Below, piece by piece: positions 8,012 through 57,717 of a DNA stretch of 64,000 bases. The stretch lies in NCBI RefSeq assembly GCF_055900595.2, contig NZ_CM148325.1. One strand, given 5' to 3'. A program made the position numbers and the translations under genes. Every line of letters begins with the position of its first letter. Position 1 is the stretch's first letter. Below the pieces are notes generated by a model that worked only from the letters and a program-made list of their open reading frames with translations, had not been told where the DNA came from and ran no database searches.

Positions 8012-8680
8012 TCCTTCCTCAATCTTGAGTAACCCCGTCGTTGAAGGGTTACTCAATTCATCCTGATTATACGCACTGTCATGGTGCAACTGCTTCAAAT
8101 TAAAACTCTGGTCTGACTTCAAATAATTATCATATTATTTATTTGCGTAACGGGATATCAGAAAAAGATATTTAGCCCATTAATTTATTAGGATGTTTAC
8201 ATCGGATTTGTGATTAAGCGTGGTATTATTTATTAGCGAAACGTTTCTCTCTTGATTTTTTTGCGCATTCATCAATTTTTCTTATTTTAAATTTACAATA
8301 CCTTTGGCGATTGACTTCTCTTTGGGGTGATTGATAGCCGTTAACTGACTGTTTTATGAGAAAAAGTGATATAACTTTTTATTCATTGCATAGCAGAAAA
8401 TGTGATATTGCACGCACTATGTAATAACTTCTCCCATTGGCCTGGAACAACTGAACTTATTGAACTATGTTAGAAAATACGTCAGTTTAAGTATCTGCCT
8501 GAACTGGCAAGGTTAAGCACAATGATATATCGGCGCGTATTCCGTTGCATAAGTGTGCAAAAAAAGTGGAAGACGTATCGAGATTTGTGCGTCTGATCGA
8601 GACATGTTTAAAAATGGCTTGCCATAATTAACGTTGTATGTGATAACAGATTTCGGGTTAAACGAGGTACAGTTCTGTTT

Positions 8681-8824
8681 ATGTGTGGCATTTTCAGTAA
8701 AGAAGTCCTGAGTAAACACGTTGACGTTGAATACCGCTTCTCTGCCGAGCCTTATATTGGTGCCTCATGCAGTAATGTGTCAGTTTTATCTATGTTATGC
8801 CTGCGGGCGAAGAAAACAATCTAA
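8681..8824 (+). CDS. yobF: small protein YobF (47 aa)
   Basis: Translated by hand: [47 protein letters not shown]; immediately upstream of cspC; absent from track (under 60 aa). Confidence 0.85.
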
Positions 8825-8836
8825 GGAATTTTTCAA

Positions 8837-9046
8837 ATGGCAAAGATTAAAGGTCAGGTTAAGTGGTTCAACGAGTCTAAAGGTTTTGGCTTCATCACTC
8901 CGGCTGATGGCAGCAAAGACGTGTTCGTACACTTCTCCGCTATCCAGGGTAATGGCTTCAAAACTCTGGCTGAAGGTCAGAACGTTGAGTTCGAAATTCA
9001 GGACGGCCAGAAAGGTCCGGCAGCTGTTAACGTAACAGCTATCTGA
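8837..9046 (+). CDS. cspC: cold-shock-domain protein CspC
   Basis: 69-aa [40 protein letters not shown]..., canonical CSD RNP motifs. Confidence 0.97.
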
Positions 9047-9091
9047 TCGAATCCACTGATCTGAAGTGTGAAGACACTTCAATCTCGCTAT

Positions 9092-9118
9092 AAAGCCTCG
9101 TCGAATGCGAGGCTTTTT
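9092..9118 (+). terminator. intrinsic terminator downstream of cspC
   Basis: stem aaagcctcg / cgaggcttt followed by a 5-T run. Confidence 0.8.
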
Positions 9119-9211
9119 ACTTTGCTTTATCTTCGCTCCTGGCATTCGGATATTTGCCCGCCGCGTGATTCGCGTTACACTTGCGGACTTTAGTATCCTG
9201 CCGGAGTTGTC

Positions 9212-10021
9212 ATGTCGTTTTCCTGTCCACTTTGCCATCAGCCTCTCTCGCGTGAAAAAAACAGCTATATCTGTCCCCAGCGACATCAGTTTGATATGGC
9301 GAAAGAAGGGTATGTCAACCTGTTGCCTGTTCAGCATAAACGATCTCGTGATCCGGGCGACAGCGCGGAAATGATGCAAGCACGACGCGCATTCTTAGAT
9401 GCCGGACATTATCAGCCGCTGCGTGATGCAATTGTTGCCCAACTGCGGGAACAGCTTGATGAAACGGCCACGGCGGTGCTGGATATCGGCTGTGGTGAAG
9501 GGTATTACACACACGCATTTGCCGATGCGTTGCCCGAAATCACCACGTTTGGTCTGGATGTCTCGAAGGTGGCGATCAAAGCTGCGGCAAAACGCTATCC
9601 GCAGGTCACTTTTTGTGTCGCTTCCAGTCACCGTTTGCCGTTTGCCGATGCCAGCATGAACGCCATTATTCGCATCTATGCGCCGTGTAAAGCAGAAGAA
9701 TTAGCGCGCGTAGTGAAGCCCGGCGGTTGGATCATTACAGCTACGCCGGGACCGCGACATTTGATGGAGCTGAAGGGGCTGATTTACAATGAAGTACATC
9801 TTCATGCACCTCATGCAGAACAACTGGAAGGTTTTACATTACAGCAGAGTGATGAGTTGTGTTATCCGATGCGTCTTCGCGGTGACGAAGCCGTCGCGTT
9901 ATTGCAGATGACGCCGTTTGCCTGGCGAGCGAAGCCAGAAGTCTGGCAAACGCTGGCAGCAAAAGAAGTGTTTGACTGCCAGACGGACTTTAATATTCAC
10001 CTCTGGCAGCGTTCTTATTAA
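9212..10021 (+). CDS. rlmA: 23S rRNA (guanine745-N1)-methyltransferase RlmA
   Basis: 269-aa [31 protein letters not shown]... (zinc-ribbon N-terminus, SAM-MTase fold motif DIGCGEGYY). Confidence 0.95.
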
Positions 10022-10584
10022 CCGTGGAAGTGCGTCCAGAGGATCTGGACGCCGATGCCGATCAGTACCAGCCCGCCGAGAATTTCCGCTTTCTTCCCAA
10101 TAATTGAGCCGATAAAGCGACCAACCATCATCCCTAATGTCGACATAATCAAGGTTGCACAACCAATGGCTAATGCGGTCGCGATAATGTTGACCTGCAG
10201 GAAGGCCAGACCAACCCCCACAGCCATCGCATCCAGGCTGGTGGCAATCGCGGTGGTTACCAGTAGCCAGAAACCGTGTCGACGGCGCGGTTCTTCATCT
10301 TCATCATCTGCACCACGAAAACCCTCGATAATCATTCGCCCACCGAGGAATATCAGCAGCACAAACGCAATCCAGTGATTCCATTCAAGGACAAACCGGC
10401 TGGCTAACATGCCCATTCCCCAGCCGATCAGCGGCGTCAGGGTTTCGACGGCACCAAAAATAAGGCCAGTTCGCAAAGCTTCAGAAAATTTCGGTTTATG
10501 GAGGGTGGCACCTTTACCGATTGATGCAGCAAATGCATCCATCGACATACCAAACGCAAGAAGAACAGTAGCAGTGATATTCAT
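10018..10584 (-). CDS. mntP: manganese efflux pump MntP
   Basis: Track ORF 10018..10638 trimmed to ATG at 10584 ([21 protein letters not shown]...), AGGA Shine-Dalgarno 10 nt upstream; 188 aa. Confidence 0.9.
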
Positions 10585-10699
10585 GACAACGTCCTGACCG
10601 GGGTATCCATAAAACACATCATCGCCCCCAGCAAACATGCATACATGAACAACAAACCGCGATGATTTTCGCGTTCATGCAGGCATAGCGATTGATGTG

Positions 10700-10805
10700 C
10701 ATATGGTCTCGCCTGACTGAAAGTGTTCAGTTCGTACGTGCCACGTTTTGCAACGAGTATGTTGACACGTACATTTCCGGAATCTGGAAATCGGCTACTC
10801 CCCAA
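10700..10805 (-). promoter_or_regulatory. yybP-ykoY family Mn(II) riboswitch aptamer in mntP 5' leader
   Basis: Minus-strand leader carries conserved GGGGAGUAGCC ... GUCAACAUAC ... CAGGCGAGACC blocks typical of the yybP-ykoY motif, upstream of mntP. Confidence 0.7.
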
Positions 10806-11012
10806 ATGAGGGCGCAACATTAACATATTTTTAGAATATAAAACAACTGTTGGGATATATTATTTCAGCAGTTAATTGATAACGATTTTCATTTAGATTT
10901 ATATATCAATGAAACGTTAAAATAAATAACAAATAAGGGATGGGATAATATAGCCTAAGCTATGTCTGATTATTTAAAATACAGCAAACATAGCTTTGGC
11001 TAAATTCATAAC

Positions 11013-11471
11013 TTATTGAGTGGAAACAAGAAGTTTATAAATTTTCTCCAGGTCGTCGATATTTCGAACGCGGATTAACAGCCGGCGCTGTTCTAATTGC
11101 ATCACTAACACGCCATCTTCAGACAAGTTCATCGCTTTAATTCGACTATATTCAATCCAGACATTGGCGAAGAAAAAACCTTTTTGTTTAAAGATGATCT
11201 TCGGAACGCGGATCCAGAAAATATAAAACCCCATTAGAGCCAGTGCACTTAATAACCATGTCGTTATTTGCGCGCCATGATTCGTGACGTTGTTATAGAT
11301 AAGAATGACAATCAGTCCTACGAAGATAACGCTGTCGATGCGGCCACGTCGGAGCAAAGGAATTGCCAGCAGGGTGGGGCCGTTGCGGCGGGGCATGATG
11401 AACTGATCGTAGATCGCGAAGGTCAGGAGTGCGGCGATAAAAAGAATCAGTACCAGGTCCGTGATTGTCAT
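11013..11471 (-). CDS. yobD: UPF0266 membrane protein YobD
   Basis: 152-aa [27 protein letters not shown]..., multi-TM. Confidence 0.85.
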
Positions 11472-26524: not shown

Positions 26525-28210
26525 TTGAAGAAGGTTTGGCTTAACCGTTATCCCGCGGACGTTCCGACGGAGATCAACCCTGACCGTTATCAATCTCTGG
26601 TAGATATGTTTGAGCAGTCGGTCGCGCGCTACGCCGATCAACCCGCGTTTGTGAATATGGGGGAGGTGATGACCTTCCGCAAACTGGAAGAACGCAGTCG
26701 CGCGTTTGCCGCTTATTTGCAACAAGGGTTGGGACTGAAGAAAGGCGATCGCGTTGCGTTGATGATGCCTAATTTATTGCAATATCCGGTGGCGCTGTTT
26801 GGCATTTTGCGTGCCGGGATGATCGTTGTAAACGTTAACCCGTTGTATACCCCGCGTGAGCTGGAGCATCAGCTTAACGATAGCGGCGCATCAGCGATTG
26901 TTATCGTGTCTAATTTTGCCCACACTCTGGAAAAAGTGGTTGATAAAACCGCCGTTCAGCACGTTATTCTGACCCGTATGGGCGATCAGCTATCCACGGC
27001 AAAAGGCACGGTAGTCAACTTCGTTGTTAAATACATCAAGCGTCTGGTGCCGAAATACCATCTTCCAGATGCCATCTCATTTCGCAGCGCACTGCATAAC
27101 GGCTACCGGATGCAGTACGTCAAACCCGAACTGGTGCCAGAAGATTTAGCTTTCCTGCAATATACCGGCGGTACCACTGGTGTGGCGAAGGGCGCGATGC
27201 TGACTCACCGCAATATGCTGGCGAATCTGGAACAAGTTAACGCGACTTATGGGCCGCTGTTGCATCCGGGCAAAGAGCTGGTGGTGACGGCACTGCCGCT
27301 GTATCACATTTTTGCTCTGACCATTAACTGCCTGCTGTTTATTGAACTGGGTGGGCAGAACCTGCTTATCACTAACCCGCGCGATATTCCGGGGTTGGTA
27401 AAAGAGTTAGCGAAATATCCGTTTACCGCGATAACCGGCGTTAACACCTTGTTCAATGCGTTGCTGAACAATAAAGAGTTCCAGCAGCTGGATTTCTCCA
27501 GTCTGCATCTTTCTGCAGGCGGTGGTATGCCTGTTCAACAAGTGGTGGCTGAACGTTGGGTGAAACTGACCGGACAGTATCTGCTGGAAGGTTATGGCCT
27601 GACCGAGTGTGCGCCGCTGGTCAGCGTTAACCCGTATGATATTGATTATCATAGTGGTAGCATCGGTTTGCCGGTGCCGTCGACGGAAGCCAAACTGGTG
27701 GATGATGATGATAATGAAGTACCACCGGGTCAACCGGGTGAGCTTTGTGTCAAAGGACCGCAGGTGATGCTGGGTTACTGGCAGCGTCCGGATGCTACCG
27801 ATGAAATCATCAAAAATGGCTGGTTACACACCGGCGATATCGCGGTGATGGATGAAGAAGGATTCCTGCGCATTGTCGATCGTAAAAAAGACATGATTCT
27901 GGTTTCCGGTTTTAATGTCTATCCCAACGAAATTGAAGATGTCGTCATGCAGCATCCTGGCGTACAGGAAGTCGCAGCTGTTGGCGTACCTTCCGGCTCC
28001 AGTGGTGAAGCGGTGAAAATCTTCGTAGTGAAAAAAGATCCATCGCTTACCGAAGAGTCACTGGTGACCTTTTGCCGCCGTCAGCTCACGGGCTACAAAG
28101 TACCGAAGCTGGTGGAGTTTCGTGATGAGTTACCGAAATCTAACGTCGGAAAAATTTTGCGACGAGAATTACGTGACGAAGCGCGCGGCAAAGTGGACAA
28201 TAAAGCCTGA
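26525..28210 (+). CDS. fadD: long-chain fatty acid-CoA ligase FadD
   Basis: Track ORF 26459..28210 trimmed to TTG at 26525 so the product begins (M)[19 protein letters not shown]..., 561 aa; AMP-binding motif [12 protein letters not shown]. Confidence 0.93.
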
Positions 28211-28227
28211 GCGTTAAGTCAGTCGTC

Positions 28228-28255
28228 AGACGCCGGTTAATCCGGCGTTTTTTTT
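28228..28255 (+). terminator. intrinsic terminator downstream of fadD
   Basis: stem cgccgg / ccggcg with TTAAT loop followed by an 8-T run. Confidence 0.8.
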
Positions 28256-57478: not shown

Positions 57479-57717
57479 ATCAGATGCTAAATGAGCAAGG
57501 GAATGTAGTGGAGAGAGGGAGTGAAAGACAGTCCGATTCAGGAGTGTGGCCGACAGCATATCGGCCACATTTTTGTGCACAGAAAACCCCCAGCTAGGCT
57601 GGGGGTTCCGGAAAGCTTTCAGCTTTGAGCCAGTTATTAAAACCCCTTTTGATTTGTTAAAACACCTTGCGGTCTGGCAACTGCAAGTGTCAAACAAGAA
57701 ATCAAAAGGGGGTCCCA

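Follow-up and report, generated by a model that had tools for sequence, protein, structure and literature searches.

The mntP locus and its leader

What is the long untranslated leader in front of the manganese exporter gene mntP, and how might it control that gene? The question arose for a stretch of 64,000 nucleotides, referred to here as the window, in which an earlier note had read the DNA upstream of mntP as a known yybP-ykoY manganese riboswitch. The mntP coding sequence, identified from its open reading frame and by locus comparison, occupies positions 10018 to 10584 on the minus strand (start codon 10584-10582) and encodes a Mn2+ exporter of 188 aa. The surrounding DNA is the yobD-mntP-rlmA-cspC region of Escherichia coli, and of 5,426 complete E. 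coli genomes 5,418 have this region, with 95-99% identity. When positions 1-25000 of the window were compared with these 5,426 genomes, the nearest complete relative had 99.3% identity over 25 kb, and because of this the source genome belongs, as judged from such comparison, to an E. coli lineage that is somewhat divergent. For the mntP locus itself, a few strains gave the best matches, namely EC42405, 2020CK-00188 and the MFDS strains.

Since a scan for the sigma-70 consensus returned zero promoters, the transcription start was taken from literature numbering. In the RNA numbering of PMC12153347, which places A11 in loop L1 and A48 in loop L3, +1 falls on window position 10809 and the leader comprises 225 nt (10809-10585, minus strand). 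The window has adenosines at both published positions (A11 = 10799, A48 = 10762), with which the 225-nt numbering is consistent. A leader length of 229 nt is given in PMC11647493. The untranslated region of about 250 nt in the earlier note is thus real and was somewhat overestimated in size. The span assigned to it, 10585-10830, was right at its lower bound and took in about 21 nt of promoter DNA at its upper bound, which leaves the location correct to within about 20 nt.

Open reading frames that overlie the leader were considered and rejected. An 81-aa ORF on the minus strand (10826-10581) begins upstream of the transcription start and, like a 43-aa ORF on the plus strand (10692-10823), overlies covarying RNA helices. 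An N-terminally extended mntP ORF of 206 aa, starting with the ATG at 10638, lacks conservation: 41 of 71 distinct leaders have in-frame upstream ATGs, which give differing lengths, and 30 have none. In the window no stop interrupts the mntP frame between its start codon and this ATG (10585-10638, minus strand), an openness that looks like a by-product of conservation at the RNA level.

Sequence blocks and the RF00080 covariance model

Three conserved blocks of the motif had been named in the earlier note, and all of them were found exactly on the minus strand: GGGGAGTAGCC at 10803-10793, GTCAACATAC at 10766-10757 and CAGGCGAGACC at 10715-10705. The ordered three-block pattern had a single match in the 64-kb window and none in 100 dinucleotide-preserving shuffles. 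An Rfam scan of the whole window at gathering thresholds returned no RF00080, the yybP-ykoY family, and reported only STnc490, a cspA-thermoregulator match and sroD. With permissive filters, RF00080 (Rfam 15) aligned to 10811-10715 on the minus strand, a segment without the third block, and scored 39.1 bits, short of the gathering score of 45. The corresponding E-values were 4.6e-9 for a 701-nt search and 4.2e-7 for the whole 64-kb window, where this was the only RF00080 match and the sole additional match with E<=1e-3 in the permissive scan. The cmscan proposed in the earlier note as a check gave a covariance-model match that is statistically significant and scores below gathering.

The gathering score of 45 bits is an operational cut-off and not a biological property. 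The leader of E. coli K-12 MG1655 likewise stayed under it, with 41.6 bits (positions 2462-2558 of locus L002 in our leader set). Because the K-12 leader also falls below this value and because of the E-value of 4.2e-7, the missing gathering match was not taken as a refutation. Inspection of the model pointed to the origin of the low scores. As displayed in release 15, RF00080 has 177 positions and ends after the hairpin equivalent to P4; its 5' GGGGAGUAG block is unpaired, it holds no positions for the 3' GAGACC strand, and the short enterobacterial P4 costs a long deletion. The conserved 3' strand (GGCGAGACC) lies beyond the end of the model and so adds nothing to the RF00080 score. Hence the score below gathering is a property of the RF00080 model and not evidence against membership of the family.

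This has consequences for annotation. Neither the E. coli RefSeq/PGAP records listed nor the K-12 record carries a feature under the mntP leader. The earlier remark that ORF-based annotation would miss the element was accurate and even understated, as Rfam annotation at the gathering threshold misses it too. In its current form, RF00080 at gathering passes over an experimentally validated enterobacterial mntP riboswitch (39-42 bits vs 45), and for this reason the leader is unannotated in the roughly 5,400 complete E. coli RefSeq genomes examined. Pipelines that rely on gathering thresholds would systematically under-count the mntP riboswitch class in Enterobacteriaceae.

Architecture and conservation of the aptamer

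The RNA from +1 to +111 (10809-10699, minus strand) folded without constraint into P1.1, P1.2, P2, P3.1/P3.2 and P4, so that the four-way junction is the minimum free energy (MFE) structure. In a slightly offset segment P1.2, P2, P3 and P4 were formed. Comparative data came from 80 Enterobacteriaceae mntP loci that were fetched by similarity of the MntP protein and not by motif. All 77 loci with enough upstream sequence contained the aptamer. In a MAFFT alignment of the 74 distinct aptamers, 95.7% of cells were paired when the known structure was imposed, and 19 of its 34 pairs showed compensatory changes, that is, changes on both sides. None of 500 shuffles scored as high on any measure; these covariation figures are descriptive, the shuffle control being blind to phylogeny. 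In a second control, sliding the 3' partners by 1-3 columns reduced pairing to 25-44%. Despite the phylogeny-blind shuffles, the case for the predicted four-way junction is strong, given the slid controls and how many distinct pair types were seen. The folding check suggested in the earlier note was in this way borne out, with the junction as unconstrained MFE and covariation behind it.

Every helix of the aptamer had at least one compensatory pair among the 74 leaders. In the yybP-ykoY family these helices are expected to form two coaxial legs, P1.1-L1-P1.2-P2 and P3.1-L3-P3.2-P4, and the window fold contains all of them. On the minus strand, the switch helix P1.1 is formed by RNA 1-8 (10802-10809) and RNA 104-111 (10699-10706, CCAUAUGC), with compensatory changes at 2-110, 3-109 and 4-108. 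It is followed by loop L1, whose 5' side is GGAGUA (RNA 9-14, 10796-10801) and includes the A-minor adenosine A11, and whose 3' side is GAGA (RNA 100-103, 10707-10710). The P2 hairpin (RNA 19-37, 10773-10791) has 6 pairs, 3 of them compensatory, with 99.8% of cells paired. The P3.1-L3-P3.2 arm extends over RNA 38-76 (10734-10772) and has 7 pairs in P3.1 (3 compensatory) and 4 in P3.2 (1 compensatory); within it lies the metal-binding loop L3, CAACAUAC (10764-10757), which contains A48, the adenosine that would stack with A11. In the P4 hairpin (RNA 78-95, 10715-10732) all 7 pairs are compensatory, and in the window A78 (10732) stands opposite C95. The metal core, consisting of L1 (GGGGAGUAG opposite GAGA) and L3 (CAACAUAC opposite UGG), is identical to that of K-12 and invariant in all 74 leaders.

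The score of 39.1 bits against a gathering score of 45, taken with the lack of any PGAP annotation on the mntP leader, could be read to mean that the likeness to yybP-ykoY is fortuitous and the leader simply a long structured UTR. Such a chance likeness would have to account for an E-value of 4.2e-7 over the whole window, for three ordered blocks that appeared in no shuffle, and for strong covariation in exactly the helices of the yybP-ykoY family. It would also have to explain why the element precedes a Mn2+ exporter gene in 77 of 77 loci and why the orthologous K-12 RNA, a crystallised member of the family, scores below gathering as well. The K-12 score, the covariation and the E-value effectively refute this reading, to which we assign next to no probability.

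We conclude that the mntP leader is almost certainly a Mn2+-sensing riboswitch of the yybP-ykoY class (RF00080) and of the four-way-junction type, in which Mn2+ would turn on translation of MntP. Its position directly upstream of a Mn2+ efflux gene is that of the family, whose members precede genes of Mn2+ efflux or tolerance (MntP, TerC/Alx, P-type ATPase). The leader of K-12 mntP (yebN), in the orthologous yobD-mntP-rlmA locus, is also 225 nt long and shares the platform layout, the Shine-Dalgarno sequence and the start codon; its aptamer is identical at 109 of 111 positions, with L1, L3, P1.1, P1.2, P2 and P3 unchanged. The K-12 leader is an experimentally characterised Mn2+ riboswitch whose apo aptamer has been solved (PDB 4Y1M, as cited in PMC12153347). 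The reading of the earlier note is upheld by this identity, by the E-value of 4.2e-7 and by a junction that is both MFE and covarying, and neither of the outcomes that the note had named as refuting it occurred. The element is already known, since E. coli has two textbook Mn2+ riboswitches and the mntP leader is one of them. Beyond the textbook, the analysis adds only the gap in Rfam and RefSeq annotation, a P4 variant private to the window, a platform allele that is rare, and comparative data in support of the platform helices.

Expression platform and proposed mechanism

In K-12, Mn2+ binding stabilises the docking of L1 with L3 and hence P1.1, which results in a translationally active leader (PMC12153347). 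Unless Mn2+ is bound, the platform invades the P1.1 switch helix once the transcript is about 205 nt long, and the RNA has to fold co-transcriptionally (PMC12153347). Alkaline pH tightens Mn2+ binding (PMC9603457). Rho terminates transcription in the K-12 leader and early ORF, and activation of the riboswitch partly relieves this termination (PMC11647493). Mn2+ binding, translational activation, the switching point near 205 nt and the role of Rho are taken from this K-12 literature, and the work on the window provided the identity of the locus, the architecture of the aptamer, its conservation and covariation, and a competing, more stable fold that disrupts P1.1. By analogy with the K-12 ortholog, from which it differs at two aptamer positions, the window allele would be expected to bind Mn2+ and to be activated by it.

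The expression platform comprises RNA 112-225 (10585-10698, minus strand), as delimited from the alignment, the folds and PMC12153347. Its main stem, H2, is formed by RNA 111-122 with 185-195 (10615-10699) and encloses an apical hairpin that varies between lineages. In an alignment of 71 distinct leaders, 9 of its 11 pairs were compensatory. Downstream of H2 lies UAUGG (RNA 199-203, 10607-10611), which is complementary to CCAUA in the 3' strand of P1.1 (RNA 104-108) and pairs with it in the MFE fold of the full leader. In the 71 leaders 96.9% of the cells for this anti-P1.1 interaction were paired; both segments are nearly invariant, so that they show no covariation and covariation is uninformative for this helix. 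CCCCGGU (RNA 207-213, 10597-10603), directly 5' of the Shine-Dalgarno sequence, has alternative partners in GCUGGGG (RNA 178-184, 10632-10626) and in G7-G10 of the aptamer, and both pairings were seen in folds. GCUGGGG/CCCCGGU was paired in 99.2% of cells, with compensatory changes in only four leaders of the Cedecea/Buttiauxella type (L069, L077, L078 and L082). The Shine-Dalgarno sequence itself, AGGA (RNA 215-218, 10592-10595), was read from the sequence 7 nt before the AUG, and GGAC/GAGG is conserved in the 71 leaders.

Folding of RNA 1-245 gave an OFF-like MFE structure (-80.7 kcal/mol) that paired UAUGG with the 3' strand of P1.1 and G7-G10 with C207-C210. With the aptamer forced closed, the energy was -72.4 kcal/mol and C207-U213 was paired to 179-185. 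The P1.1-disrupting fold of the full leader was thus 8.3 kcal/mol more stable than the aptamer-locked one. These predicted folds, together with the platform covariation, fit the published switch-helix picture of K-12, and the pairing of CCAUA with UAUGG agrees with co-transcriptional probing of the K-12 leader (PMC12153347). Accessibility of the Shine-Dalgarno sequence showed no clear difference between ON-mimic and OFF-mimic folds, and published probing of the K-12 leader found no clear Mn-dependent trend at the ribosome-binding site (RBS) (PMC12153347).

We propose that RNA +1 to +111 acts as the aptamer and that Mn2+ would stabilise the P1.1 switch helix and so permit translation. When Mn2+ is lacking, CCAUA in the 3' strand of P1.1 would be captured by UAUGG at the base of the long platform hairpin, and the leader would adopt a translationally inactive fold, in which the RBS may be occluded. 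Because the inactive fold would form when Mn2+ is absent, Mn2+ would turn on translation of the MntP exporter; through the coupling of translation to transcription it would also lift in part the Rho-dependent termination that takes place in the leader and early ORF. The alignments of 71-74 leaders add comparative support for the platform stem, and the conserved GGGG/CCCC/GGGG competition adjoining the Shine-Dalgarno sequence could help to design experiments on how the RBS is gated.

The 3' strand of P1.1 also contains an AUG (RNA 108-110) that opens a 27-codon upstream ORF (10702-10619, minus strand), and the leader might act through this uORF instead of, or alongside, ligand sensing. Both the window and K-12 keep this ORF open, and a 12-nt insertion in E. 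coli leaves its frame intact. Its start codon is found in only 11 of the 71 distinct leaders, though, the rest having AGA, AGG, TGG or TGA at this place, and where an AUG is present the ORF differs in length and frame, having 7 codons in one case, running on in another or being fused in frame with mntP. Moreover, all three differences between window and K-12 inside the ORF are non-synonymous, and no uORF is mentioned in PMC11647493. On these grounds the uORF was rejected as a conserved element, and control through it is highly improbable.

The apical platform hairpin differs considerably between lineages. Leaders of the Enterobacter type do without it altogether and have a platform of 75-78 nt, as compared with 107-128 nt elsewhere. 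E. coli sensu stricto (window and K-12 included) carries the 12-nt insertion in this hairpin, at about 10660-10671 on the minus strand, and the insertion is absent from the cryptic Escherichia clades, E. whittamii and E. albertii (loci L003-L007 compared). One of these loci, L006, comes from a strain labelled E. coli SCPM-O-B-8794. Because it lacks the insertion and its MntP is only 96% identical, it looks like a cryptic-clade genome.

The interior of the platform also shows a terminator-like hairpin, CGCGAAAATCATCGCG followed by GTTTGTTGTT (10648-10673, minus strand). As a terminator, the hairpin at 10673-10658 was rejected: one match was found with 0.4 expected, which is not significant, and in the folds its U-tract is paired inside the platform hairpin.

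Differences between the window allele and K-12

The transcribed leader of the window differs from that of K-12 by six substitutions (G78A, U85C, C145U, A150G, C154U and A220G). Two of them, G78A and U85C, fall in the aptamer, U85C being located in the P4 loop, and A220G lies between the Shine-Dalgarno sequence and the AUG. G78A (window position 10732) is also the sole difference from the nearest leader allele, that of strain EC42405. When a 60-nt probe was compared with 5,422 complete E. coli genomes, A78 was seen in none of them, and all full-length matches had one mismatch. The affected pair closes P4; among 74 leaders it is GC in 67, AU in 4, GU in 1 and other in 2, and in the window it is A.C. 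The predicted cost of the exchange is 3.6 kcal/mol, with P4 keeping six Watson-Crick pairs and the junction still being the MFE structure. Since the nearest genome is 0.7% divergent, drift would be expected to bring about one private SNP into a stretch of 111 nt. Because of the retained pairs, the retained junction and this expectation, we judge G78A to be probably neutral or mildly destabilising.

C145U, A150G and C154U lie in the apical platform hairpin, where they produce a perfect 5-bp CGCGA/UCGCG stem followed by GUUUGUUGUU, the tail being richer in U. The stem of this terminator-like hairpin is perfect in the window-type allele only; in K-12 it contains a C.A mismatch, and the tail has fewer U. 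The window-type allele of this 60-nt platform segment was found exactly in 7 of 5,410 E. coli genomes.

One could suppose that the riboswitch of this lineage has been kept by descent and functionally weakened or re-tuned by G78A and the platform allele, with a Mn2+ set-point or dynamic range unlike that of K-12. A78.C95 is indeed one of only 2 non-pairs in 74 at an otherwise covarying pair, and the absence of A78 from the complete genomes, the predicted loss of 3.6 kcal/mol and the rarity of the platform segment point in the same direction. This has to be set against the six Watson-Crick pairs that P4 retains, the four-way junction that remains the MFE structure, the unchanged L1/L3 core and the private SNP that drift alone would supply at this divergence; P4 is, in addition, the most variable helix in both length and sequence. 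Lineage-specific re-tuning by G78A and the platform allele has no positive support, and we regard it as unlikely. In a more specific form, G78A would leave an A.C opposition at the P4 junction that could pair only when protonated, and together with the platform allele it would shift the Mn2+ or pH set-point or add an intrinsic pause or termination step without counterpart in K-12. That the lineage may carry a riboswitch naturally re-tuned in this way is quite unlikely.

Comparison with other riboswitches

The second E. coli member of the family, alx (ygjT), likewise exerts translational control over a Mn2+ exporter by way of a P1.1 switch helix (PMC12153347). It differs in having no P2 and therefore a three-way junction, in another L3 sequence, in intrinsic terminators and in its response to alkaline pH (PMC12153347), whereas the window element possesses P2, forms a four-way junction and carries an L3 of the mntP type. 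The alx riboswitch is absent from the 64-kb window, the single RF00080 match of the permissive scan being the mntP leader.

Gram-positive yybP-ykoY riboswitches mostly control an intrinsic terminator. Those of Lactococcus lactis yoaB, Bacillus subtilis yybP and ykoY and Streptococcus pneumoniae mgtA share with the mntP leader the L1/L3 metal core, the four-way junction and the role of an ON-switch for Mn2+ efflux genes (PMC12153347). The mntP leader differs from them as a translational switch with secondary Rho-dependent termination (PMC11647493, PMC12153347). In the latter respect it resembles the Mg2+ leader of Salmonella mgtA and the FMN leader of E. coli ribB, which are also long and in which the state of the ligand sets the access of Rho (PMC11647493). 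Ligands and aptamer folds of these leaders are unrelated to those of mntP, and the effect of Rho on mntP has been attributed to the coupling of transcription and translation (PMC11647493).

Putative upstream operators and promoter region

Upstream of the transcription start, a palindrome search revealed two MntR-operator-like sites. The proximal one, ATAGC-N4-GCTAT at 10947-10966, lies about 150 bp upstream of +1 and keeps a fixed distance in 74 of 75 loci; the distal one, TAGC-N4-GCTAT at 10987-11006, is located just after the yobD stop codon. The pattern TAGC-N4-GCTA occurs only twice in the 64-kb window, and the two copies together make up inverted repeat I1. In the window they lie some 140-200 bp upstream of mntP +1. 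Among 75 Enterobacteriaceae loci, 74 have at least one such palindrome, with a varying spacer and a distance to the aptamer that stays fixed, and 38 have both by the strict pattern. The half-sites match what we take to be the operator consensus of MntR, a member of the DtxR family, for which Waters et al. 2011 is reportedly the primary footprinting paper. On their sequence, the palindromes are probably MntR operators, here called putative. Matches to mir-282, mir-355 and other miRNA-like models at 10931-11018 on both strands were rejected as spurious; they are explained by the two operator-like palindromes and not by RNA.

In K-12, both MntR and Fur act at the mntP promoter, and MntR activates mntP (PMC11647493). 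Between the MntR-like sites and the promoter, at 10860-10925, the window has AT-rich inverted repeats (I2, I4 and I5). As Fur is reported to regulate mntP (PMC11647493), one of them may be a candidate Fur box.

Other observations

The further Rfam matches in the window concern other RNAs. STnc490 (57585-57708, plus strand, 146 bits) and sroD (28169-28254, plus strand, 115 bits) are full-length, near-identical matches to small RNAs. The cspA thermoregulator RF01766 scored 136 bits at 8662-9121 on the plus strand, over the leader and coding sequence of a cold-shock paralogue adjoining yobF, and many non-canonical pairs were flagged in the alignment. The orthologue of this paralogue is cspC in the K-12 annotation and cspE according to PGAP in another strain. 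The match may reflect homology of coding sequences and not a conserved thermosensor.

Among the fetched leaders, one locus from a record labelled Chryseobacterium sp. 18061 (L076, CACSKA010000003.1) is of the Enterobacteriaceae type. It has exactly the same aptamer sequence as Citrobacter sp. 18056 (L072), which by its naming belongs to the same study, and the record is probably an assembly contamination or a labelling error.
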